Below are positions 1,936 to 63,400 of a stretch of DNA of 64,000 nt, piece by piece. The stretch comes from Squalus acanthias. Its lineage: Eukaryota. The notes under the pieces are model-generated. The model was not told the DNA's origin. It searched no databases and saw nothing but the letters and a program-made list of their open reading frames with translations. The stretch's first letter is position 1; each line of letters begins with the position of its first letter. The position numbers were made by a program, and so were the translations under genes. Location: NCBI GenBank assembly GCA_030390025.1, contig CM059431.1, positions 130,512,001-130,576,000 on the forward strand, written 5' to 3'.

Positions 1936-3476
1936 TGAAGCAGTTTCTTCTGCCACCACTCCAAAGCGAAATCTTGCAGTGCACGAGGAGGCTGTGCTTC
2001 ACAAGGCAGGCTGTTGCTGAACTATGTAGCCTATTGCAGCAGGACCAGAGGGGCTTCGAAGTTTGGTGTGCCACCCGTTGTGTTGGCCAATCAGGTTAGA
2101 AACCTGTCTGTGAGATTATAATGAGGCCTGGGAGTTAAAATTCCCCAGGCCTGTTTAATGGTGCAGTGGGTGACTTTCTAATTTGCCTCGTCGCCCACCT
2201 GCTCAAAACCTGCCCGGAATTAAAATCAAGGCCAATATGTGGAATTAGGGCCACATCTGTTGAAAATAGTACCCAAATCTGTCTTCTATGGAACAAATGT
2301 AATTTAGTGAGTATGAATGACTGACAATTTTTATTGTTCAAATATAACATGTTAGAAATTCAAGATTAGCAGGCTTTTGTCCGAATACCAAAACAAGCAT
2401 AAAAAGCTTTCTGTTTCCATTACCAGACTGCATTTGTTTACCCTGAAACCGTAGGTTACTTTTGATGTCTATTTTAGGATGTGGAGAACATATGTTCACT
2501 GATCTAAGATCAATACTGAGTTAGAGTTAGTCAGCCGGGAAACACACCATTAGCTTTTGATTTTTTAAAAAGAAAACCCTAGGTTTCCTCGGCTGCTTCG
2601 GTACTGACACTGTCTTCTGATGTGACTGCATCTACTTTCAGGGCTGTGTCTTGAGCCCACCCTAGAGCCAATCTAGAGCACCCCACCACCCAAACCACAG
2701 CCACAAGGAAAAATTATACTGGTTGAGTGTCCAATGAACTCTCGCTGGTAGCAGGTGTGACAGAATTTGTTTTCTTGATTTAGCTTTGCCAAAGCTCCTT
2801 TAATTGAATTACAGTGCATTAGGGTTACAAGACAGCTAGATTCACAGAAATCCTTTCCCACCCTAAATTGTTAGAACAGTTGCAATTATTGTTGAGCTAT
2901 TTGTGGAAAAATGTATCAAATAACTGACAAACAAAACATATATGGGATTTTTAATCTTTTAGAATGAGTTTTTTCTCCATAATACCATTGTGATATTGCT
3001 CCAGTAACAAAATTGTTTCCTAGAAACTTCAAAAGGCTTCTCATCTTTAAACAGTTGAAGTAATTTCCAATAAGGCATCTCTTTGACAAATCAGTTTGGG
3101 AATCATTTAATGTGAGAACATAAATCATGGAAGCAGAAGATATGCATGCTGGGAAGAGAGTTCCACACTGTTTATGCAGGAAGGCATGAAGTGTTCAATT
3201 TATTTCAATAGCAGAGACATAGCGCCAGGTTCCCACTGGGGTTTCACTCACTCCAGTTATTTGGAAAACAGATTTAGGATATGGTTTGTGATTTTAAGCA
3301 TCCCTATGCATAAATGTAGTTGTAATAAGATGAGGTGGTGGTGGCAATCTGAAGCGCAGGCATGTTTAGAATAACTATTGACAAGCAGCTATTTGAAAAG
3401 ACTTTTCATTGTAAATCAGAGCACAGCAAAGGGCTAAATTAGGTATCTTAATGGCTTGTGCATAAGCTAAAAGACA

Positions 3477-6559: not shown

Positions 6560-6752
6560 ATATTTCATCCTTCATTGTCACTGAGTCAAAATCCTGGAGC
6601 TCCCTACCTAACAGAATTGTTGGAACAACTTCACCACATGGACTGCAGCAGTTCAAGACGATGGTCCGCAACCACCTTCACAGGGCAACTAGGGATGGGC
6701 AATAAATGCCAGCCTTGCCAGCAACGCTCACATTCAAGAATGATCAAAAAAA
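6560..6752 (+). mobile_element. 3' end of the CR1-Zenon-like LINE
   Basis: SKSWSSLPN..VG..SPHGLQQFK; AGGGATGGGCAATAAATG tail as at 18213-18227. Confidence 0.8.
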
Positions 6753-9785: not shown

Positions 9786-10085
9786 TTGACTCAACTGGTA
9801 CATTCTCACTTTTGAGTTAGAAAGTTGTGGTTTTAAATCCCACTCCAAGATTTGAACACAATAATCCAAGAAGAAACATCAATGCAATATTGAGGAAGTG
9901 CTGCTTTAGTTGGAAGAGATATTAAACTGAGTCCCATCTACTTGTTCAGGTGGACATTAAAGATCCTATAGTACTATTTGAAGAAGAGCAGGGAGTTCTC
10001 CTGGTGTCATTAAGATTTGCCAGTCATTCATCTCATTGCTGTTTGTGGGATCTTGCTGTATGGAAACTGGTTGCACATTTGAAGT
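9786..10085 (+). mobile_element. Degenerate Deu-domain tRNA SINE
   Basis: Head and CAGGTGGACATTAAAGATCC..GAAGAAGAGCAGGG core homologous to 27683-28137. Confidence 0.7.
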
Positions 10086-14706: not shown

Positions 14707-15169
14707 AATATGTTTATAGTAAATCCTGTTATTTTCTAGGATATTTTATTTTACTGGGTTTTTGTTATTTTTGAGTTGATTTTTTAAATTATGGGCCAAC
14801 AATAGGACTGCAAAAGTGCAGGTAAAATTAATCATGTCGTGGGTCAATGTGACATACCTGTGCGTAGTTGTGCACTTATAGTTTTACAGAAAAAAAATCA
14901 TCTCTCTATTTTTAACTTTTTTGCCAATTTTCTCCCCACCCCTGTTTTCATGAAGGTGTTGACTCATTTCTGAGGTACAGTTTCACAGACATTGATCATC
15001 CCCTCTGGTACCTTGCCCAAAGAGCTATTGTTCTTGTGTGAGCCAGTGATAGCCTGTGGTTGCCAAACTCCATGCATGCACACAAAGGTCACTGGATTAT
15101 GATCAGTAGTGGCAGTATTCCCCTCACTAATCCAGAACAGTACCTACAGAATGCAGTATAACTGCATCA

Positions 15170-18100
15170 TAGGAACGGCAGCATAGTGGTTATGTTACTG
15201 GACTAATAATCCAGAGGCCTGGACTAACTGATCCAGAGACATGAGTTCAAATACCACCACAGCAGCCGGGGAAAATAAAATTCAATTAAAAAAATCTGGA
15301 ATAAAAAGCTAGTACCAGTAATGGTGAGCCTGAAACTATCGGATTGTTGTAAAAACCCATCTGGTTCACTAATGCCCTTTTATGGAAGGAAATCTGCTGT
15401 CCTTACCTGGTCTGGCCTATGTGACTCCAGGCCCACAGCAATGTGGTTGACTCTTAACTGCCCTCTGAAATGGCCTAGCAAGCCACTCAATTGTAACAAA
15501 CCGCTACAGAAAACATTACTAAGAATAAAACCAGACGGACCACCCTGCAAAGTCCTCCTCACTAACATCTGGGGACTTGTGTCAAAATTGGGAGAGCTGT
15601 CACACAGACTAGTCAAGCAACAGCCTGACATAGTCATACTCACAGAATCATACCTTTAAGCCAATGTCCCAGACTCCTCCATCACCATTCCTGGGTATGG
15701 CCTGTCCCACGGGCAGGACAGACCCACCAGAGATGGCGATACAGTGGTATACAGTCGGGAGGGAGTGGCCCTGGGAGTCCTCAACATTGACTCCGGACCC
15801 CATGAAGTCTCATGGCTTCAGGTCAAGCATGGGCAAGGAAACCTCCTGCTGATTATCACCTACAACCCTCCCTCAGCTGATGAATCTGTACTCATCCCTG
15901 TTGAACACCACTTGGAAGAAGCACTGAGAGTAGCAAGGGCACAGAATGTACTCTGGGTGGGGGACTTTAATGTCCATCACCAAGAGTGGCTCTGTAGTAC
16001 TACTACAGGCTGAGTCCTGAAGGACATAGCTGCCAGACTGGGCCTGCGGCAGGTGGTGAGAGAACCAACACAAGGGAGAAACCAACTTGACCTTGTCCTC
16101 ACCAATCTACCTGTCGCAGATGCATCGGTCCATGACAGCATTGGTAGCAGTGACCACCACACAGTCCTTGTGCATTTGCAACCATCTTCAGCCAGAAATG
16201 CCGAGTGGATGATCCATCTCGGACTCCTCCTGATGTCCCCACCATCACAGAAGCCAGTCTTCAGCCAATTCGATTCACTCCACCTGATATCAAGAAATGG
16301 CTAAGCGCACTGGATATAGCAAAGGCTATGGTCCCCGACAACATCCCGGCTGTCGTGCTGAAGACTTGCGCTCCAGAACTAGCTGCGCCTCTAGCCAAGC
16401 TGTTCCAGTACAGCTACAACACTGGCATCTACTCGACAATGTGGAAAACTGCCCAGGTATGTCCTGTCCACCAAAAGCAGGACAAATCCAATCCAGCCAA
16501 TTGCTGTTCCATCAGTCTACTCTCAATCATCAGCAAAGTGATGGAAGCTGTCGTCAACAGTGCTATCAAGCGGCACTTACTCACCAATAACCTGCTCACC
16601 GATGCTCAGTTTGAGTTCCACCAGAACCACTCGGCTCCAGACCTCATTACTGCCTCGGTCCAAACATGGACAATAGAGCTGAATTCCAGGAGTGAGGTGA
16701 CATCGAGGCAGCATTTGACCAAGTGTGGCATCAAGGAGCCCTAGTAAAATTGAAGTTAGTGGGAATCAGGGGGAAAATTCTTCACTGGCTGGAATCATAC
16801 CTAGCACAAAGGAAGATGGTTGTGGTTGTTGGAGGTCGATCATCTCAGCCCCAGGACATCGCTGCAGGAGTTCCTCAGGGCAGTGTCCTAGGCCCAAACA
16901 TCTTCAGCTGCTTCATCAATGACCTCCCCGCCATCAGAAGGTCAGAAGTAGGGATTTTTTTTAAATTCATACACGGGATGTGGGCGTCGCCGGCAAGGCC
17001 AGCTTTTATTGCCCATCCCTAATTTTCCCTCGAGAAGGTGGTGCTGAGCCACCTTCTTGAATAAGTGGCACTTCAGAGGGCAGTTAAGAGTCAACCACAT
17101 TGCTATGGGTCTGGAGTCATATATAGGCCAGACCGGGGAATAACAACAGATTTCCTTCCTTAAAGGGGTTTCGTGAACCAGATGGGTTTTTTACGACTAT
17201 CTGGTAGTTCCATGGTCACCATTACCGATATAGCTTTTTAATTCCAGATTTATTTAAGTGAATTTAAATTCAACAGCTGCCGTGGTGGGATTTGAACTCA
17301 TGTCTCTGGATCATTAGTCCAGGCCTCTGGATTACTAGTCCAGAAACATAACCACTATGCTACTGTACCTGTGTTTGCTGATGCTTGTACAGTGTTCAGT
17401 TCCATTCGCAATCCCCAGAAAATGAAACCGTCCATGCCCGCACACAGCAAGACCTGGATGACATTCAGGCTTGGGCTGATAAGTGGCAAGTAACATTCAC
17501 GCCACACTAGTGCCAGGCAATGACTATCTCCAACAAGCGAGAGTCTAACCACCGCCCCTTGACATTCAACGGCATAACCATTGATGAATCCCCCACCATC
17601 AACATCCTGGGGGTCACCATTGACCAGAAACTTAACTGGACCAGCCACATAAATACTGTGGCTACAAGAGCAGGTCAGAGGCTGGGCATTCTGTGGCGAG
17701 TGTCTCACCTCCTGACTCCCCAAAGCCTTTCCACCATCTACAAGGCACAAGTCAGGAGTGTGATGGAATACTCTCCACTTGCCTGGATGAGTGCTGCTCC
17801 AACAACACTCAAGAAGCTCGACACCATGCAGGACAAAGCAGCCCGCTTGATTGGCAACCCATCCACCACTTTAAACACTCACTCCCACCATTACCGGCAC
17901 ACCGTAGCTGCAGTGTGTACCATCTACAAGATGCACTGCAGCAACTCGCCAAGGCTTCTTCAGCAGCACCTCCCAAAGCCGCAAACTCTACCACCTACAA
18001 GGACAAGGGCAGCAGGCGCATGGGAACACCATCACCTGCAAGTCCCCTGCAAGTTACACACCATCCTGACTTGGAAGTATATCTACGATCCTTCATCGTT

Positions 18101-18227
18101 CCTGGGTCAAAATCCTGGAACTCCCTCCCTAACAGCACTGTGGGAGTACCTTCACCACACAGACAGCAGTGGTTCAAGAAGACGGCTCACCACCACCTTC
18201 TCGAGGGCAATTAGGGATGGGCAATAA
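15170..18227 (+). mobile_element. CR1/Jockey-group LINE (CR1-Zenon-like) with tRNA-like 5' head; EN+RT disrupted and internally deleted
   Basis: APE endonuclease (LLTNIWGL, PDIVILTES, VGDFN, LDLVL, SDHH) and RT (GVPQGSVLGP, IYKAQVRSVMEY); A/B-box-like head at 15175-15260. Confidence 0.9.
16954..17370 (-). mobile_element. tRNA-derived SINE composed of the host LINE's 5' ~300 nt plus its 3' tail
   Basis: Reverse complement matches 15175-15470, then 18170-18227 and the 3' tail, and ends in an A-run; interrupts RT motif SEVG|(M)FADD. Confidence 0.88.
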
Positions 18228-18416
18228 CTCCAACTGCACATCCTAGACACCAGCTAAAAAGGTTTGACTCTTTTGCAGAAATCGCTGTTGAAATTAAATT
18301 AAATTCTGTAAATAAAGCCGGGATAGAAGATTAATATCAGTAAAGCACAAAGAGAAAGTAAAAATAAAACTCATACTCCATATACATTTTTAGCAGTAAA
18401 CACATTGTACACACAA

Positions 18417-19897: not shown

Positions 19898-20366
19898 GAA
19901 AGAAAAAAAGGAAGATTTGCATTTATATAGCGCCTTTCACGACCACCGGACATCCCAAAGCGCCAATCTAGTATTTTTTGAAGTGTAGTCACTGTTGTAA
20001 TGTAGGAAACGCGGCAGCCAATTTGCACACAGCAAGCTCCCATAAACAGCACTGTGATAATGACCAGATAATCTTTTTTTGTGATATTGATTGAGGGATA
20101 AATATTGGCTAGGACACCGGGGATAACTCCCCTGCTCTTCTTCGAAATAGTGCCATAGGATCTTTTACGTCCACCTGTGAGGGCAGAGAGTGCCTCTGTT
20201 TAACGTCTCATCCGAAAGACGGCACCTCCGACAGTGCAGCACTCCCTCAGCACTGCACTGGAGTGTCAGCCTAGATTTTTGTGCTCAAGTCTCTGGAGCG
20301 GGACTTGAACCCAGAACCTTCTGACTCAGAGGCGAGGGTGCTACCAACTGAGTCATGGTTGACACA
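19898..20366 (-). mobile_element. Deu-domain tRNA SINE (SacSINE1/AmnSINE-like)
   Basis: tRNA-like head (..CTCAGTTGGTAGCA..GGTTCAAGTCC), Deu core GGAGGTGCCGTCTTTCGGATGAGACG, L2-like tail GAAAGGCGCTATATAAATGC. Confidence 0.9.
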
Positions 20367-20865
20367 GCATACAGTTACACTAAATTACAGGGATTAATGT
20401 TGAAAATCAGCACCGAATTAACAATGTAGTAGCACCAGCACTCCTTATTATAATCAATAACACTGTCACTAAAATACACTACACCAATTTTAATCGAGGT
20501 AGGAATCGATCAGGTGGGGGCTGAGGCAGACAGCTGACTGTGCCAACCTCAGCAGCATGAAGCCCAGGAGATTTTAACTTCTGTGCCTCATCTGCATATC
20601 CTCAATCAATCTCCCACCAAAACTGGTGGGAAGTAGCAGTTGGCTGATGGGCAGAAGCGCAATTTTGCGCGGTAGGAATCTGCCGACGGGGACTGAAGGA
20701 ATCGTTCCTGGGACATAGGTAATAAAAGGGAGGGCCTCACAAGGGGGAGAGGGGGTGGGGGTGGGGGTGGGGGGTGGAAGCCCAGGGCAGTGGAGACCTA
20801 AATTTTGCTTGTTGGTCCTGGATAAACCCATACATCATGCTGACAGCTGAGAATCTAAACAGATA

Positions 20866-22309: not shown

Positions 22310-23084
22310 ATAGAGACAAACCTATAACAATGTCAAATCAGAAGTTGCAGCAATGTAGCTAAGATCATTTTCAGTGGTCTGCGATATTATATTTGTGCTA
22401 TCAAAATTAGAGTCAAGGTTTGAGTGAGTGCAAACCTATGTTTGAGAATATAAAGTGTGGAACAAAAATAAATCTATTCAGAATATCAGGCCCATTTTTT
22501 GTAAAATTTACCCTATCATCATCTCTATAAAACCTATCCAACCAAGCACAGGTAAAACCTGAAAGAGGATACATTTCAGAAACTGACTTAAAGATAGCCA
22601 AGCAAAGCACAGGAATAACAGTCCAACTCCACAATGCTAACTGAACCAAATGCATTTCACAGTAAACACTCCCAACGGCCCACGCTCCATAGAGTACATG
22701 ATTATCTCTACTTATCCTTATAAACTTTCATTCCATCCTTAACCAGATATTTATCAGGCTTATTTTATTTTGTCAAAATGTAAACTGTCTTCGTTCCACA
22801 TATTCACTTCTCATGGAGGTGGAGGTGTTGGGGAGATTTCTTCTAACCTCTACTTTCACTTGAAAAATGCAAGTACACATGTCAAAATGTGAATGAAAAC
22901 CAAGAGGTGATATCAAAGAAGCAATAGGATTAGTGGAACAATTTAGATATTGTTTAACCTGTCAAGAGTCAAATGTGACTGATTTAGAGGAGCTGTGGTC
23001 AAGATGAGAAAAAGATTGCACTTGATATATGCAAGATTTTTTAATAAAAATTGCTGTAGGAATCCAATTGATTAATATAATTAA

Positions 23085-23550
23085 AGAAAGACTTGCATTT
23101 TTATAGCGCCTTTCATGACCACCGGACGTCTCAAAGCGCTTTACAGCCAAAGAAGTATTTTTGAAGTGGAGTCACTGTTGTAATGTGGGAAATGCGGCAG
23201 CCAATTTGCGCACAGCAAGCTCCCACAAACAGCAATGTGATAATGACCAGATCATCTGTTTTTGTAATGTTGATTGAGGGATAAATATTGGCCAGGACAC
23301 CGGGGATAACTCCCTTGCTCTTCTTCGAAATAGTGCCATGGGATCTTTTCCATCCACCTGAGAGAGCAGACGGGACCTCGGTTTAAAGTCTCATCTGAAA
23401 GACAGCACCTCCGACAGTGCAGCACTCCCTCAGCACTGTACTGGAGTGTCAGCCTAGATTTATGTGCTCAAGTCCCTGGAGTGGGACTTTAACCCACAAC
23501 CTTCTGACTCAGAGGCGAGTGTGCTACCCACTGAGCCACAGCTGACACTG
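23085..23550 (-). mobile_element. Deu-domain tRNA SINE
   Basis: Full-length copy highly similar to 19898-20366. Confidence 0.9.
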
Positions 23551-24543
23551 TATATATGTAAATTAAAATAATGCAAATTTTATAATTTATGTTAATAATT
23601 TTCATAATAAACACTACGCCTGTAATTGATCAGTCCATGTAAGGGGATCAGCGTAAGTCCCAACAGAACTGCTTTTGCTGGCTTCCTCCATTCCCCCTCC
23701 TCCTCTTCAGTGTCAGTAGCTATAAACACCGAGATATCACAGCTGTAAGGGTTTCTGAACCTGTGTGGCTCTGTGCTCAGCCTGGGTGCTAGTGCGAGGT
23801 TAGGCCTTGTTGCCTGTTCTGGTCTCCAGCCAGTCTGGGAGCACTAGACACCTGTGAGTGGTTCGACCCACTCGCCCTTACGGTTCTGACACTGGACTTA
23901 GATGCGAGAGCAGTAATGGAGAGAAAACTCAGGTAGACCCGGTTGAATGGTACGAAATGGAAAATCTTTATTGCATATTATTCAAGATTACGAAATACAT
24001 GTCATAAGCACAGATTAATGACAGTACAATCTTACACGCAGTTATGTAACTAATTTCAGGGAAACGAGGAACGAACGACACATCGTAAATGGGGGCACAC
24101 ATTACAGTTATCCTTAAAACTTAAACCCTCCCCTATCAATACCTGCTCTAAACTAGACTTGTAGGATCGAGACTCATGCTCACCACTCGTGATAACTCGG
24201 AGAATTCCGAAAACTCTGATCGGATGTTTTTCACCGCAGCACCTGATCACCCACGTGTTGATCAGGGGTCTCTGTACCCCACTTGTTTACTCGTTTCTGC
24301 TCCGGCTAGCAGGCTGGACCGTCTGCTGTCATGAAGATCTGTGTTGTCCTCGGAGTTCCGACACGACTCGAAAAATAGTCTTCCTGTGCCCTCACACCGG
24401 TTCGATAAAACTCAAAGAAGAGTCTTCCGATGCCAGTTCTGTAAAACTCAAAGAAGGTCTTCCTGGGCAAGGAAAGTGTCTATTCGACCTACAGGCGCGG
24501 TCGGAGCTTACTGACCGTGGCGATACGTATGGTCTTCTTCTCT

Positions 24544-27682: not shown

Positions 27683-28137
27683 ATGGCTCAGTGGGTAGCA
27701 CTCGCGCATCTGAGTCAGAAGGTTGTGGGTTTAAATCCAACTCCAGAGACTTGCACACAAAATCTAGACTGACACTCCAGTGCTGTAACTGAGGGAATGC
27801 TGCACTGTCAGAGGTGCCGTCTTTTGGATGAGACGTTAAACCAAGGCCCCGTCTGCCCTCTCAGGTGGACGTAAACGATCCGATGCCACTGTTTAGAAGA
27901 AGAGATGGGAACTTTTCCCTGGTGTCCTGGCCAATATTTATCCCTCAACCAACATCACTGAAACAGATAATCTGGTCATTGTCACTTTGCTGTTGTGGGA
28001 CCTTGCTGTGCACAAATAGGCTGCTTTGTTTTCCAACATTAAAACAGTGGCTACACTTCAAAGTACTTATTGGGTATAAAGCGCATTTGGACATCATGAG
28101 GCCATGAAAGGCGCTATATAAATAAAAGTCTTTTCAT
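27683..28137 (+). mobile_element. Deu-domain tRNA SINE
   Basis: TGGCTCAGTGGGTAGCAC head, Deu core, GAAAGGCGCTATATAAAT tail. Confidence 0.9.
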
Positions 28138-28139
28138 TT

Positions 28140-29815
28140 TAGAAATTAACAAGGCCAATAGAATCTTGAACTACATAACCAACTCATTCAAATATAAATC
28201 AAAAGTTGCAATCAAACTGTACAGTGCTCTGGTCAGACTTCACCTTGAGGATTATATCCAGTTCAGGTTGCTATGAAATAAATTATACTTATATTTAAGA
28301 AGGGAGATAGAACATCTTCAGGGAACGATAGACCAGTCAACTTAATATCGGTGGTAGCAAAAATAATGGAATCCCTACTAAAGGGGAAAATAGAAAAACA
28401 TCTAGAAACCAAAAATATAATAATGAATAGCATGGATTTCAAAAGGGAAAGTCTTGCTTGACCAACCTTATTGAATTCTTTGAAGATGTAACAGAGAGAG
28501 TAGACAAGGATAATGCAGTAGATATAACATATCTAGATTCCCAAAAGGCCTTCGATAAGGTGCCACATAATAGATTAATGAATAAGGTCAGAACATGCGG
28601 AGTCAGGGGACAAGTGGCAGAATGGACAGCTAGCTGGCTGCAAAACAGAAAGCAGAAAGTATGGGTACAGGGTAGGTATTTGGAGTGGCAGAAGGTGGAA
28701 AGTGGGGTTCCATAAGGATCAATCCTGGGACCACTGTTGTTCACAATTTATATTAACAATTTAGACTTTGGAATCAAAAACACAATTTCTAAATTTGCGG
28801 ATGACACCAAATTCGAGGAGATAGTCAATACTGAGGAGGACTGCAACAAATTACAAGAAGACATTAATAAACTTGCAGAATAGGCATATAATTGGTAAAT
28901 GAATTTCAACACATAAGTGTGAGGTATTACATTTTGGTAAGGAAAATAAGGAGGTCACATATTACTTGGAAAATAAGAATCCAAATGGGGTAGAGGAGCA
29001 AAAGGACGCAGGTTAATAAGGCCATAAAATAGCAAACCAAGCACTAGGGCTTATTTCTAGAGCGATATAATTGAAAAGTAGAGACGTTATGCTAAACTTG
29101 TATCGAACCTTGGTTAAACCATACTTGGAGTACTGTGTACAGTTCTGGTCGCCATATTGTAAATAGGAAATAGAGGCACTGGAGAGAGTGCAAAAAATAT
29201 TTACAAGGCTGATACCAGAACTGTGATTATACCAATCAGGAAAGGATGAACAGGCTAGGTATTTTGTCTCTTGAAAAGAGAAGGCTGAGGGGTGACCTAA
29301 TAGAGGTCTTTAAAATTATGAAGGGTTTTGATAGAATGTTTCCATTTGTAGGGAAGAGCAAAACTAGAGACCATCAACATAAGATAGTCACCAAGAAATC
29401 AAATAGGGAATTCAGAAGAAACCTCTTTACCCAGAGAGTGGAGAGAATGTGGAACTCGCTACCACAGGGAGAAGTTGAGGCGAATATTATTGATGGATTT
29501 AAGGGGAAGCTTGTTAAGCATATGAGGGAGAAGGGAATAGAGGATTATACTGATGAGGAAGGATGGGATGAGGCTCGAGTGGAGCATAAATGCCAGCATG
29601 GATTGGTTTGGCCAAATGGCCTGTTTCTGTACTGTATGTTCTATGTAATTCTTTGTAAAGTGAGACATTCAAGTGCTGGAGGCAGGGCAGGAAGAGCCAC
29701 AAGGCTGATTCCTTGTGTCAGGGATTTGAGTTATGAGAAAAGCTTTAAGAAACTTGGGTATTTTAGTCTAAAAGAGAGACATCTGACAGTTGATCTTATA
29801 TTTGCTATATATAAA
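28140..29815 (+). mobile_element. Old CR1 fragment split by a younger CR1 (about 28285-29655)
   Basis: NKANRILNY..KLYSALVRLHLE at 28140-28270 resumes as RATRLIPCVRDLSYE after 29660; the inner element has LTNLIEFFE, FADDTK, WNSLP and a TTCTATGT tail. Confidence 0.8.
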
Positions 29816-38623: not shown

Positions 38624-38985
38624 AGGCTCAGTGGTAGCACTCTTGCACCTGAGTCAGAAGCCCCACTCCAGGACTTGAGTACATAGGCCAGGAATTTCCT
38701 TGGAGTTGCTCCCACTCTGACCGTAAGTGCAGCAGAAACCCCGTTTATGGAGTGGGAGGACATTCCTGGCCATAATCTAGGCTGACACTTCAGTGCAGTA
38801 CTGAAGGGGTCTTGCACTGTTGGAAGTGTTGTCTTTCAGATGAGGTGCTAAACTGAAGCCCTGTTGGTCCTATCAGGGGGGCATAAGAAGACGAGCAGGC
38901 GAGTTCCCCTGCTACTGTGGCCAACACTTATCCCTCCACCAACATTAAAACCGATTATGTGGTGTTTTATCGCATTGCTATTAAA
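38624..38985 (+). mobile_element. Degenerate Deu-domain SINE interrupted by a mini-MITE
   Basis: GGCTCAGTGGTAGCAC head; Deu core at 38810-38940. Confidence 0.75.
38686..38771. mobile_element. 86-bp Harbinger-like mini-MITE
   Basis: Perfect 10-bp TIR GGCCAGGAAT / ATTCCTGGCC; TSD ATA; the SINE is continuous when it is removed. Confidence 0.85.
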
Positions 38986-46660: not shown

Positions 46661-47712
46661 ATGGCAGAAATATTAAACAATTATTTTGCTTCAGTATTTA
46701 CCAGGGAGATAGAACAGATGAACATGACATTGGATGATGAGATTAGTAATGAGATAAGTGCATTTAAAATTTAAAAAGGGGATATATTAAATAAATTAAT
46801 CAAACTCAAAGAGAATAAAACCCCTGGTCCAGATGGATTGCATCCAAGCATTTTAAAAGAATCTAGGGAAGAGATAGCAGAGGCATTACTGTGCATATTT
46901 AATAATTCGTTAGAAAAAGGTGTAGTGCTAGAGGACTGGCGGATAGCTAACGTAATACCGATATCTAAGAAAGGGGATAGAACATGTCCAGGGAATTATA
47001 GACCAGTCAGCTTAACATCGGTGGTAGGAAAAATAATGGATTCCCTACTAAAGGGGAAAATAGAAGAACATCTAGAAACCAAAAATATAATAATGAATAG
47101 TCAACATGGATTTCAAAAGGGAAAATCTTGCTTGACCAAACTTATTGAACTTTTTGAAGAGGTAACAGAGAGAGTAGACAATGGTAATGCAGTAGATGTA
47201 ATTTATCTGGATTTTCAAAGGCCTTCGATAAGGTACTCCATAATAGACTGATGAACAAGGTCAGAGAATGCAGAGTCGGGACAAGTAGCAGAATGGATTG
47301 CTGGCTGGCTTCAGGACAGAAAGCAGAGAGTAGGAGTAAAGGGTAGCTATTCACAGTGGCAGACGGTGGGTAGTGGTGTTCCACAAGGACCAGTGCTGGA
47401 ACCACTGCTGTTCACAATTTACATTAACAATTTAGACTTAGGAATCAAAAGCACAATTTCTAAATTTGCAGATGACACCAAATGGGGGGGGATAGTCAAT
47501 ACTGAGGAGGACTGCAACAAGTTACAGGAGGACTTTAATAAACTTGCAGAATGGGCATATAATTGGCAAATGAAGTTCAACACAGATAAATGTGAGGTAT
47601 TACATGGAGGGTGCGAGTCTAGGTGGGGTAGAGGAACAAAGGGATCTAGGAGTACAAATACACAAATCACCACAAGTTGCAACACAGGTTAGCAAGGCCA
47701 TAAAAAAAGCAA
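46661..47712 (+). mobile_element. CR1 RT internal fragment
   Basis: YFASVFT, PGPDGLHP, GNYRPVSLTS, GVPQGPVL, FADDTK. Confidence 0.9.
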
Positions 47713-52679: not shown

Positions 52680-53152
52680 TAAAGAGACTTGCATTTATAT
52701 AGCGCCTTTCACGACCACCGGACACCCGAAGCGCTTTACAACCAATGAAGTACTTTTTGAAGTGTAGTCAAAGTGTAGTCAAATTGGCTGCTGAGTAGGA
52801 AACTCAGGAGCCAATTTGTGCACAGCAAGCTCCCACAAACAGCAATGTGATAATGACCAGATCATCTGTTTTTGTTATGTTGATTGAGGGATAAGTATTG
52901 GCCAGGACACCGGGGCCCCTGCTCTTCTTAGAAATAGTGCCATAGGATCTTTTACGTCCAACTGAGAGGGCAGACGGGGCCTCGGTTTAACGTCTCATCC
53001 GAAAGACGGCACCTCTGACAGTGCAGCACTCCCTCAGCACTGCACTGGAGTGTCAGCCTAGATTTTTTGTGCTCACTGTCCCTGGAGTGGGACTGTGAAC
53101 CACAGCCTTCTGACTCAGAGGCGAGTGTGTTATCCACTGAGCCACGGCTGGC
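52680..53152 (-). mobile_element. Deu-domain tRNA SINE
   Basis: Full-length copy with a small internal AAGTGTAGTCA duplication. Confidence 0.9.
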
Positions 53153-53414
53153 ATTGTAGGAAGAGTTGTATGTGATTGGTTGGACCAGAATGACTCATGG
53201 GAACCAGAGGATCAGCACATTTATGGGATGTAAATAGTGCTAGAAAAAGTGGTATCCAGCAGCCAGAGACTCAAGCAAATTTCATTGTAGGATTTTCACT
53301 TTCTGTTCACAATTCTGTTGATTTTACAACAGTGTGATGCAAAACAATGACATGTTTGGGGGTTGAGAGGAAATATAGGGTTAAATACAGGCTTTGCAGC
53401 TCTTCCAAATATAA

Positions 53415-56760: not shown

Positions 56761-56991
56761 AAATAACAACAGAAAACACTGGAAAAACTCAGCAGGCCAG
56801 GCAGCATCCGTGGAGAGAGAAACAGAGTTAACGTTTCAGGTCGAAGACCTTTCGTCAGTTCTGACGAAAGGTCTTCGACCTGAAACGTTAACGCTGTTTC
56901 TCTCTCCACGGATGCTGCCTGGCCTGCTGAGTTTTTCCAGCGTTTTCTGTTGTTATTTCGGATTTCCAGCTTCCGCAGTATTTTGCTATCG
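56761..56991 (+). mobile_element. Palindromic Penelope-derived mini-element with twin hammerhead cores
   Basis: 98-bp arms (56761-56858 / 56861-56958, 2 mismatches, TT spacer) plus 33-bp tail; 14-bp TSD TATATCCCTTTGCA. Confidence 0.9.
56858..56892 (+). ncRNA. Minimal type I hammerhead ribozyme motif
   Basis: GTT-CTGACGA-A-AGGTC(TTC)GACCT-GAAA-CGTT-AAC. Confidence 0.75.
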
Positions 56992-58264: not shown

Positions 58265-60062
58265 TGTAATGTTTACTAGCGAGCCTAAATTGGTACCTGA
58301 CCTTCATATGGGCGAACACCTGGGAAATAGTGACCACAATATTATACGGTTTCAATTAGCTGGTAGAACCAAAGGCACTGAAAATGTACAATTAATTCCA
58401 GATTTCTAGAGGACTAACTTTAATAAAAATGGAATAGGCTTTAGAACAGGTCAATTAGTCAACCTTACTCGGTGGCAACGAAACCAATGCAGAATATAAA
58501 TGAAAAGTCTTAAGAGAAAAATTAAACGCATAGACGCTATGTATGTCCAAATTCAAAAGAAGGGATTGTGGTAAGAAGAAGCTATTGTGTTTGACTGGTC
58601 ATGTACTAAGACAAATAAGACATAACCAGCACAGACTAGTTGGGCCAAATGGCCTGTTTCTGTGCTGTATATTTTTTTTTAATAAATTGGAAGTATATAA
58701 TACAGCAAAACGAAGCCAAGTACTGAAAGCAGTTAAAAATAACTAAGGCTACTATTATATCAGCTAAAAGGTTCATGGAAAAGAGGATTGTGAACAACTG
58801 TGGAAGCAATGGTAAAAGCTTTTTCAGCTGTGTGACGAGTCAGAGGACCATCAAAGACTGTACTGAGTCACTAAAAATGCTCAAGAACAGGTCAGAAAAG
58901 ACTCTGTGTGCCAGCGATGCTAAATGAGTACTTTGCATCAGTCTTCACTCTTGAAGATGATCCACAACTGACAGAATTAAGGGTTGCTGTTAGCAATAAA
59001 ATTGTTTAAATTAAAATAGATGAGGATATTGGTTTAGAAAGAACAAAATAGATCAGGCTACTGACGCAGATGATTTCCAACTGAGGGTCCTTAAGGATAT
59101 GGGACAGGTGCTGTGCGAGCTGGAGTTGCAGATTGTTCCTTTAGACTGGAATAACAGTTCCAATTTTTTAAAAGGGGGCTACGCAGAAACATGCAAATTT
59201 AGGCCTATTAGCTTGATGTCAGTAATAGATAAATGCGAGAGAGAGAGAGAGAGAGAGAATCATTAGGGATGCAATATATGACCACTTAGACAGAGACAGG
59301 GACACCCAACATGACTTTCGGAAAAGAAGTCGTGTCTTACCAATTTGATTGAATTTTTTAAAGAAGTCACCAAGTTAGTGGATGAGAGTAACCCGGTTTA
59401 CATTGTCTACCTCGACTTTCAGAAGGCTTTTGATAAGGCACTGCATAAGAGGTTTTTCTACAAGATTAGTTGTAATCTGCTGTGGTGGATTGAGAATTGG
59501 CTAAACGCCCTTAGGCAGAAAGTGGTTGTCAATGGATTTGGATCTGCTTGGAGACTGTTTACTACTGGTGTTCCACAGGGATTGGTGTTAGGACTTCTGT
59601 TATTTATTATTTTTATCGATGATCTAGATGTAGTTATTGGGGGAATGATCCACAAGTTTAAAGACGATACCAGGATGCTCAACTATGCCATGACCAATGC
59701 CGCAGAACTATAGCTAAAGCGAACAAGGTTCTAAGGTGTATTCACAGGAAAAATCACTGTAAAACAAAGCATACCATTTTGTCCTTGTACACAACCTTGG
59801 TTAGGCCTCTGTTAGAATACTGTGCTGAGTTTTGTTTCTTCATGGTAGGAGATACTGAGGCATTAGAAAGGGTGCAGAGGAGGACCACAAGATTGATTAC
59901 TCTTTGAAAACATCATAGTTACACAGGTAGGCTCAATGAGCTGGGTCTGTATATTTTAGAGAAGCGTAGACTTGAGCGATTTGATTGAGGTTCATAAAAT
60001 AATGAAGAGACTAGATTGTGTTTATGTAGAGCAATTATTTCAGCTAGATAGGTTAGATAGGT
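58265..60062 (+). mobile_element. Old, heavily decayed CR1
   Basis: LGNSDHN, LNEYFASVFT, VYLDFQKAFDK, GVPQGLVLG. Confidence 0.85.
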
Positions 60063-60639: not shown

Positions 60640-63400
60640 GTGTCTTGGCTGAGGGGCTGGTGAGGGACCAATAAGGGAGCAGACATGCTGACATCCTGAG
60701 AGAGGGCATCACGTGCTGCCCTCACTGTATCACTCCCACTCCCATGGGCTGGGGCCGATCACTCCCATGGGCCGGGGCTGATCACTCCCATGGGCTGGGG
60801 CTGATCACTCCCATGGGCCGGGGCTGATCACTCCCATGGGCTGGGTCTGATCACTCCCATGGGCTGGGGCTGGTCACTCCCATGGGCTGGGGCTGATCAA
60901 TCCCATGGGCCGGGGCTGATCACTCCCATGGGCCGGGGCTGATCACTCCCATGGGCCGGGGCTGATCACTCCCATGGGCCGGGGCTGATCACTCCCATGG
61001 GCCGGGGCTGATCACTCCCATGGGCTGGGGCTGATCACTCCCATGGGCTGGGGCTGATCACTTCCACTCCCATGGGCTGGGCTGATCACTCCAATGGGCC
61101 GGGGCTGATCACTCCCATGGGCTGGGGCTGATCACTCCCATGGGCTGGGGCTGATCACTTCCACTCCCATGGGCTGGGGCTGATCACTTCCACTCCCATG
61201 GGCCGGGGCTGATCACTCCCATGGGCCGGGGCTGATCACTTCCACTCCCATGGGCTGGGGCTGATCACTCCCATGGGCTGGGGCTGATCACTTCCACTCC
61301 CATGGGCCGGGGCTGATCACTCCCATGGGCCGGGGCTGATCACTTCCACTCCCATGGGCTGGGGCTGATCACTCCCATGGGCCGGGGCTGATCACTCCCA
61401 TGGGCTGGGGCTGATCACTCCCATGGGCTGGGGCTGATCACTTCCACTCCCATGGGCTGGGGCTGATCACTTCCACTCCCATGGGCCGGGGCTGATCACT
61501 CCCATGGGCCGGGGCTGATCACTTCTACTCCCATGGGCTGGGGCTGATCACTTCTGCAGGAGAGCAGACTGCAGAAGACCATTGACTCCTTCAAATTTCC
61601 TATTCATTTGCTGCACAAATCTCTTCAAGGCGGATGTCTGTCTCTGCAAGGTCAATTTCTACCTCTCTAAGGCAGAGCACAGGTTTGACCCCAGAGTCTA
61701 CATGGTAGCTGTTTGAGGTTCCACCAAAACTGCAAAGACTATGACCATTGACTTCTTGTGAGGGCCCGGCTGCAACATTCCTGGATGTGGACACTCCAAT
61801 GTAGACTCCATAGTGCTGATGCCCTGCGAGATGACATCACACAGGCTGAAAGCAGATTCCGCCTCATTTTCAGCCATGGTGGTGAAACTCATTGGCAAGT
61901 CTTCCAATACCTGTATAACTGCTTATGTGAAGCAAGCAGTTTTCTTCTCATTGCAGGATCCCTGAAGTCCACCTGTCTGTCCTCCTCAGCAGTGCTGGGA
62001 TAGGATCTCGTGAGCTGCCTCCTGGACTATCCCTGCCACCAGCACCTACTGCTGCTCACTATTGTTGGGTGTTTCACCACATGTAAATCCATTTAACACA
62101 CTCTGTAACCCTTTTATTTAACTCTGTAAGCTCGTGCTTGAATTGATGGAGCATGTCATGGTGCCTCCTGAGAAGGATTCTCCTCCTCCTGAGGTGTCTT
62201 CATCATGGGCTCAGCGTTACTGAGGAGGACCTAGAGGAAAAAGAACAGGAACAAGAGTTGAGCATGGCACTGAGAGGCTGGAGGGTAGAAGATGACAAGC
62301 ATCACAATGCAGCTTGATGTAGTTAAGCTGTGTGATTGTGTGTTTTACAGAAGATCATGAAAGGATGCAATTGACAGTCAGATACCCTGTTCACAGAGGT
62401 CTCTGGCCTTGAAATCTCCTATCCTCACAGCTCTGGTGTGCCCCCTGATTTCTAGCACTTGCTGCTCCAACTCGGAGAGTTTCATGATGTTGGCTGGTGT
62501 TCCCTGGTCGTACTCCTCTCCCTTGTGTTGAATACTGTCTTGTTCTGCAGAGAGAAAGGGCGAGAATTAATGAGGGTCTCCTGAAAAGGAGAGTGCAGAT
62601 GAGTGGGGCTTGTGCTTGTGTGGATGTCGGGAGGAAGAAGAGCAAGTTGGAATTAGGATGGGGAGGTATTAGATGAAAGGCAGGTGTGTGGAGTGTGAAG
62701 TGAGGAAGGAGACTTGAGAGAAGGTGGTGATTGTGCAAAGGCTACCAAGTGAGAAGAGAACGCTGCTAATTGCTCCTGTGAAGGGAGCAAGGAAGAGGTG
62801 AGTGTGTGTTTGTAATGAGAATGAAGGGTGGTGAGTCCTTGTGCTGAAGGATGTGATAGAGGGGAGGGAATTATTGAGAGAGCTGGAGGAGGGGGCCAAA
62901 GGCTGTTGACATGTGTTGTTGTGCGAGGTGAAGAAATGAAGAACTATGCTCACCCTTGCTACTCTTGAGAGATTATCAAAGCGCTTCCTGCACTGTATCC
63001 AGGATCTGGGGTGATGTTCTTGGGGCTGACAGTCTCAGCAATCTCACCATGGCTGCTGAACTTGGTGCTTTGAAATCCTCTTCCCACTGGCTGGAAAGAT
63101 AACTTTCCTCCTCACCTTGATCTCCAGGGAGGCTTCAGAGAACCTGGAGGTTTGTCTGTGACATTTTGAAGTTCTTTCTTCATGCAGCAGTCCAACAGCG
63201 AAATTTTGCAGATAGAAATGCGACATCGCTTTAAGAGGTGCATTACCACTTTAAATATTCCTCTGGCTGACCCACCAGCAATTGCGCTTCGGAATTGGGC
63301 ACATTTCCTAGCGTGTCAGTGAATTGCGATTTTAATGAGGTGCATAATACCCCAGCCTTGTTTTCTGAGGCAGCGGGTGCGTTTCGGAGTTAAATTCAGG
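60640..63400 (-). mobile_element. Harbinger Myb/SANT element remnant, paralog of 1-2233
   Basis: SRFSEASLEIKVRRKVIFP..WIQCRKRFDNL; long colinear similarity to about 190-1940. Confidence 0.75.
60729..61555. repeat. GC-rich minisatellite, 23-bp unit ACTCCCATGGGC(T/C)GGGGCTGATC with 29-bp variants (+ACTTCC)
   Basis: More than 30 near-identical tandem units. Confidence 0.97.

Follow-up and report, generated by a model that had tools for sequence, protein, structure and literature searches.

A tRNA-like head and a SINE-type body at the 5' end of a Zenon LINE of sharks and rays

LINEs are usually regarded as Pol II elements that have only their tail in common with Pol III SINEs, and a LINE head carrying A and B boxes blurs this split. 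Autonomous elements have been held to require Pol II since Pol III is poorly processive (Kojima 2024, PMC10886601). The closest described SINEs are SacSINE1 and its relatives; SINEs described as such relatives are also found in elephant shark and coelacanth (PMC5499810). Their partner LINE has been given as L2-2_CM (PMC5499810) and also as CR1-4_DR-like (PMC3747384), and the role of conserved SINE bodies is stated to be unknown (PMC4824008). The closest described LINEs are the Zenon elements, for which a recent supplement lists ten consensuses, seven from sharks and rays and three from hagfish and coelacanth (Stuart et al. 2026, PMC13343379). In the same source, the table gives 59 to 2313 copies for each family, with 0 to 3 intact ORFs. 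The counts of intact ORFs over copies are 0/2313, 1/1419, 3/612, 0/396, 1/294 and 0/59, and the cell for SquAca_Zenon-1 is garbled.

We analysed one stretch of Squalus acanthias DNA, 64 kb in length, which is called the window below. On sequence grounds, the element of interest is a decayed full-length copy of the shark/ray Zenon LINE, which belongs to the CR1 group, has a single ORF (EN + RT) and measures ~3.3 kb. A first-pass annotation had set its limits at 15170-18227. The start holds at ~15172, but the tail continues to ~18260, and the annotation did not mention a reversed insert of 416 bases. The features of the locus are listed in Table 1.

Table 1. Features of the Zenon copy and of the short element inserted in it, in window positions.
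Feature	Position	Strand	Remarks
tRNA-like head, 5' end of element	15172..15255	+	A-box-like 15177-15189, B-box-like 15243-15255
SINE-like body	15256..15495	+	common to nested element up to 15472
Linker	15496..15542	+	shortened in this copy ~15542
APE-type endonuclease (EN)	15543..16172	+	Pfam PF14529 E 3.9e-6; stops at 15657, 16011
Reverse transcriptase (RT), 5' part	16173..16953	+	RVT_1 E 1.9e-12 for 16696-16947; frameshift near 16700
Nested SINE-like element, 416 bases	16954..17369	-	head + body joined to LINE 3' tail
Rest of RT, C-terminal region, tail start	17370..18227	+	44% identity to P0011 693-895; ORF 17511-18227
Rest of 3' tail	18228..18260	+	14-base deletion; ends in short A run (four window tails aligned)

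To judge from its stops, frameshifts, missing codons and insert, the Zenon copy at 15172-18260 is dead, decayed and non-autonomous. About 170 codons are gone at ~16172, where the alignment jumps from residue 246 to residue 418 of a related protein (P0011). The element had been called autonomous, which this copy is not. No target-site duplication longer than 5 bases was found around the LINE copy, and none longer than 4 bases was found around the nested insert. All four aligned tails in the window end in A runs, and the run is short in this copy.

Only 371 bases separate the 5' end of the element from EN, and ORF1 is absent, as had been noted. The annotation treated this as unusual for the group, but the lack of ORF1 is described as universal among Zenon elements (PMC13343379). 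The closest of 80 related metagenome loci (L001) has a single frame of 990 codons, with no plus-strand frame longer than 55 codons within the 950 bases upstream. Upstream frames of more than 200 codons are present in 11 of 15 other, more distant loci that were checked. The idea that capture of the head explains the missing ORF1 was rejected on account of L001 and of the clade-wide trait (PMC13343379). The upstream region of L001 (positions 1-950) contains a duplicated motif of ~40 bases. Compared by eye, this region resembles the beginning of EptBur_Zenon-2, and it is reminiscent of RTE-type 5' ends.

The relatives of the element were sought by RT phylogeny and protein comparison. In a tree of 37 rows and 141 columns, which contains no named Zenon RT, the element falls outside the starred set made up of the CR1 copies of the window and a bird CR1 (P0240), and it belongs to no starred set of its own. 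The nearest full-length proteins are ~40-45% identical, and a Branchiostoma belcheri protein is among those near them. The CR1-like copies that group with the bird CR1 lie at 37235-34576 (minus strand), 46664-47611, 28249-28907 and 59045-59704, and these were used as controls. An older copy of the Zenon lineage is present at 5779-4747 and 3972-3633 (minus strand). It is 68-74% identical, 5' truncated inside RT and headless, and a CR1-like piece at 4694-4042 interrupts it. A further piece, at 6567-6751 (plus strand), consists of tail alone.

The window contains other repeats as well. A second repeat of ~480 bases, probably another SINE, occurs in near-complete form at 19907-20387, 23083-23570, 27683-28133 and 52680-53158 (80-87% identical); pieces that match less well lie at 9787-10008 and 38774-38982. 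A tandem array with units of 23 and 29 bases fills 60668-61575. A perfect inverted repeat of 121 bases is formed by 821-941 and 1265-1385, which are 323 bases apart, and an inverted pair of 98 bases, with 2 bases between its arms, is found at 56761-56958.

Both the A-box-like and the B-box-like motif reported by the first-pass annotation are present in the head. The Rfam tRNA model matches 15172-15235 with 20.7 bits (E 0.61), below its gathering score of 29, and ARAGORN finds no tRNA anywhere in the 64-kb window. We read the head as tRNA-like and not as a tRNA gene. As claimed, no tail is seen between the head and the LINE ahead of EN. The body is presumably Deu-like and related to SacSINE1. 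Head and body together fold no better than shuffled sequences (z -0.69).

The joining of head and LINE was examined in the published consensuses, all from one automated pipeline, by eye over the opening 400 letters of every row (PMC13343379). Head, body and linker stand at the start of all seven shark and ray Zenon consensuses, which come from five species and are 2886-3314 letters long. Over this 400-letter span, the three consensuses from hagfish and coelacanth all lack them. By eye, the A-box-like motif is present in 7/7 of the shark and ray consensuses and the B-box-like motif in 6/7 (HypSab is one letter short), with a spacer of differing sequence. Where the EN start is visible, it is the same as in this copy. 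A 16-base body motif was found only in the seven shark and ray Zenon rows of the supplement, again within the opening 400 letters. Exact motif matches occur in 7, 6 and 6 of these seven rows and in no other row.

Contigs from four public runs of four organisms (X1, X4, X11 and X16) were mapped to the locus. In the three DNA-type runs, contig depth is 0-17.5 in two flank bins, as for sequence that is absent or single-copy, compared to 1e4-1e6 in the head and EN bins. The fourth run, X16, is presumed to be RNA. Before 15172, the flanks are unlike one another in 390 contigs of X1, 272 of X4 and 18 of X16, and the ending of these unlike flanks at 15172 marks a shared 5' end of the family. In X4, a single contig extends over 14960-15197, differing at 2 letters. 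Of 1741 joint rows, 15 are listed, and five of these link 15500-15515 to 15542-15549 with additional letters intervening. These joints amount to 17 contig counts in X1, 1 in X4, 2 in X11 and 1 in X16, with a shorter side of at most 66 bases. Loose ends before 15542 were seen in 146 and 228 contigs.

Predicted proteins were also searched. A query for the read-through protein returned 153 proteins, of which five carry body-derived residues ahead of EN residues: P0002 (Heterodontus francisci), P0009, P0019, P0094 and P0023. In P0023, the body-derived residues reach EN without a linker. The remainder are mostly distant relatives. Four of the proteins encountered (P0002, P0004, P0070 and P0094) are host gene models with absorbed LINE pieces and are probably annotation artefacts.

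Taken together, the comparisons indicate that the head is joined to the LINE as a family feature and not through chance adjacency. The head-EN joining proposed by the first-pass annotation is therefore borne out at the family level by the seven consensuses, the shared 5' start and the bridging contigs. The annotation had named full-length copies without a head or with an ORF1 as evidence against it, and this outcome was not encountered. A chance juxtaposition, confined to this locus, of a LINE with a truncated SINE has a negligible probability. The headless state of the other Zenon-like copy in the window would be in keeping with it, though that copy is 5' truncated inside RT, and the adjacency is already refuted by the consensuses, with the contigs and the predicted proteins as further evidence. 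Another possible explanation, which we consider very unlikely, is that a headless LINE supplies the enzyme while heads become attached to individual copies one at a time, making the headed copies recurrent passive chimeras or a consensus artefact. A junction and linker that agree among five species (PMC13343379), this copy and predicted proteins of independent origin argue against it, and no alternative 5' end appears among the 24 of 4752 loose ends listed. On the other hand, intact ORFs are rare (PMC13343379), none of the contigs listed spans the whole stretch, and the LINE tail, which is common to SINE copies, could aid switching. The copied unit is shown to include the head.

The first-pass annotation also described an ORF at 15321-15659 leading from the body into the endonuclease. 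In this copy, the frame is open over 15279-15659, has an ATG at 15321 and enters the EN start; the part from 15279 to 15545 stays open in only 1 of 2000 dinucleotide shuffles. As a family trait, the read-through is not supported: this frame proves closed when the consensuses are read by hand. For SquAca_Zenon-2, it ends after 34 codons, counted from the ATG that matches 15321. Compared by hand to the consensuses, this copy has one extra base near 15380 and two fewer near 15420. By hand count, its linker is 53 bases shorter than that of HypSab_Zenon-1 and 39 bases shorter than that of SquAca_Zenon-2. Contig loose ends are also found at 15418-15420 and 15542. A later ATG in the body opens a frame that closes before EN in HypSab and SquAca-2 (by hand); in P0002, this frame crosses the linker but is out of phase with EN. 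In the nested element, each of the three frames is interrupted by stops. These comparisons suggest that the body-EN read-through of this copy is a product of its own indels. None of 2838 candidates proved to be a longer relative of the read-through protein, which is weak evidence.

Other candidate starts for the EN frame were seen in the consensuses. In HypSab, this frame has a basic leader without an ATG, which follows a stop at the end of the body, and basic leaders precede EN in related proteins too. In SquAca_Zenon-2, read by hand, the linker contains an ATG in phase with EN. The N-termini of P0010, P0161 and P0162 have a short motif in common ~55 residues before EN, and this motif, when back-translated, is faintly like the end of the shark body.

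The element nested in RT repeats both ends of the LINE. Positions 15168-15472 and 17373-17069, which cover head and body, are 85% identical over 309 bases, and the nested tail at 17061-17006 is 91% identical to 18173-18227 of the LINE over 56 bases. The Rfam tRNA model scores 24 bits on the nested head (E 0.077, 17315-17369). The insertion point is the RT catalytic motif and splits residues 684/693 of P0011. For the nested copy, the short element can be described as the LINE minus its coding middle, with both ends in common.

This structure bears on the direction of the exchange. The nested element is exactly the 5' 300 bases of the LINE plus the 3' tail, as would be expected if head and body were an ancient LINE 5' end from which the shark SINEs, perhaps Deu SINEs generally, arose by internal deletion. 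An origin of SINE bodies from LINE 5' regions has been proposed (Kojima 2018, PMC5786205), and bivalve Deu SINEs are partnered by Zenon (PMC11481361). We nevertheless regard this direction as improbable. The head is found in 0/3 of the hagfish and coelacanth Zenon consensuses (PMC13343379), and Deu SINEs are far wider spread (PMC4824008). No head or body match was found among the 80 related metagenome loci, of which only L001 is a close relative, and ARAGORN, which misses the present head too, finds no tRNA in 30 related loci. DNA motif scans of viral contigs, metagenome contigs and prokaryote genomes gave no matches, and 0 of 47 candidates from a protein scan of viral contigs were confirmed. 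Capture of the module by the LINE is favored over the reverse because SINEs with a tRNA head and Deu body exist in elephant shark and coelacanth (PMC5499810), and for neither is a headed Zenon listed. This argument depends on the presumed identity of the body with the Deu domain and SacSINE1.

We consider it probable that the best explanation of the whole is a Zenon element with a tRNA-derived 5' module that was joined before the shark-ray split and serves as a promoter. The 5' UTR of the LINE consists in full of a head of tRNA origin plus a SINE-type body. The module most likely joined the LINE once, through template switching or recombination with a partner SINE. The distribution suggests that this happened before the split of sharks and rays and that the module has since been copied together with the LINE. 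A LINE would have to carry its promoter within the transcribed sequence, and promoters of the tRNA type lie there. The head is most likely an internal promoter carried by each new full-length copy.

Which polymerase would use this promoter is a separate question. Our leading guess, to which we give slightly less than even weight, is that Pol III makes the whole 3.3-kb RNA. The body might then, more speculatively, help the uncapped RNA be translated. Pol III terminates at T runs, and a coding RNA usually requires a cap. The coding strand of this copy has no T4 in 2313 bases, and TTT is present at 0.39 of expectation. Among the controls, all four of the window's CR1-like copies have a TTT ratio of 1.04-1.66 and all 46 related ORFs one of 0.78-1.79; T4 is present in 3/4 and 46/46 of these, respectively. 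These statistics come from one copy, for which several nulls were tried. Against dinucleotide shuffles, the 0 T4 observed compare to 1.7 expected (P 0.14), and against codon-aware nulls to 2.0-2.1 expected (P 0.08-0.09). For TTT, 7 were observed and 13 expected under a codon-aware null (P 0.02). There is no shortage of NTT codons relative to the other NNT codons (34/76 compared to 38/81, P 0.89). Outside the coding part there is one T4, at 15378, which is private to this copy, as 15383 T>G is found in most contigs. The T-run deficit was dropped as proof of Pol III after the codon controls.

The same structure could instead belong to a LINE transcribed by Pol II, in which head and body provide an internal promoter for Pol II or else function as an enhancer or RNA element, with the boxes persisting for the sake of short derivatives or through exchange with SINEs. 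We give this reading real weight but consider it less likely than not. Coding RNA is usually capped, and the T-run deficit is insignificant under the codon-aware nulls, both of which are in line with Pol II. In addition, non-LTR elements are described as made by Pol II and Pol III products as short (PMC10886601), and Deu-SINE copies serve as enhancers in mammals (PMC4824008). Against it, the full-length consensuses from five species retain, by eye, the A and B boxes despite a differing spacer (PMC13343379), the 5' end of the element coincides with the expected start of a tRNA-type transcript, and the coding part is without T4. The most complete form of the Pol III reading is that Zenon is a coding, formerly autonomous LINE that is transcribed whole by Pol III, is free of T runs and is translated independently of a cap with the aid of the SINE body. 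We consider this full combination rather unlikely.

The Zenon family and its absence of ORF1 are already published, and the head alone seems to have gone unremarked. In PMC13343379, tRNA and Deu are absent from the main text, SINE occurs once, in the title of a reference, and tRNA is absent from the supplement. No description of a tRNA-headed LINE was found in the literature searched, the scope of which excluded Repbase, Dfam and most subscription papers. Two questions become testable on Zenon: whether Pol III can make the 3-kb RNA of a coding retroelement, and what role SINE bodies play. If true, transcription by Pol III with cap-independent reading would provide a SINE domain of high conservation with a function open to testing. 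A practical consequence of the head is that the 5' end of the LINE will be masked as a SINE by repeat libraries, which will miscount both.

Among known systems, the elasmobranch Zenon elements (SquAca_Zenon-1/2/3, CarCar_Zenon-1, ScyCan_Zenon-1, RhiTyp_Zenon-1 and HypSab_Zenon-1) have the same head, body and linker, no ORF1 and an A-rich tail (PMC13343379). By eye, the SquAca consensuses are closest, and this copy adds private deletions and the nested insert. The element differs from canonical vertebrate CR1 in its RT grouping and in its lack of an esterase ORF1. SacSINE1 and the tRNA-headed Deu-SINEs of cartilaginous fish and coelacanth resemble it, by description, in their tRNA head, conserved body, LINE-derived tail and shark host (PMC5499810; PMC2746220). 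SacSINE1 has 463 bases (PMC2746220) compared to 416 for the nested element, a similar size. SINEs of this type are described as non-autonomous and as having only the tail in common with their partner LINE, whereas here the LINE has the head and body too. The bipartite RTE/Vingi derivatives (PMC5786205), such as the hagfish SINE1-1_EBu (PMC7245038), are also short elements made from the 5' and 3' parts of a LINE. In those, only the short element has gained a tRNA head. In the present case, the coding element bears it, and the clade is Zenon instead of RTE or Vingi. Finally, the TRIMp3 elements Cassandra, Helenus and Ajax are non-SINE retroelements with a Pol III promoter derived from a small RNA (PMC10886601). 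These are short, non-coding LTR elements, whereas Zenon is a coding non-LTR element of 3.3 kb.
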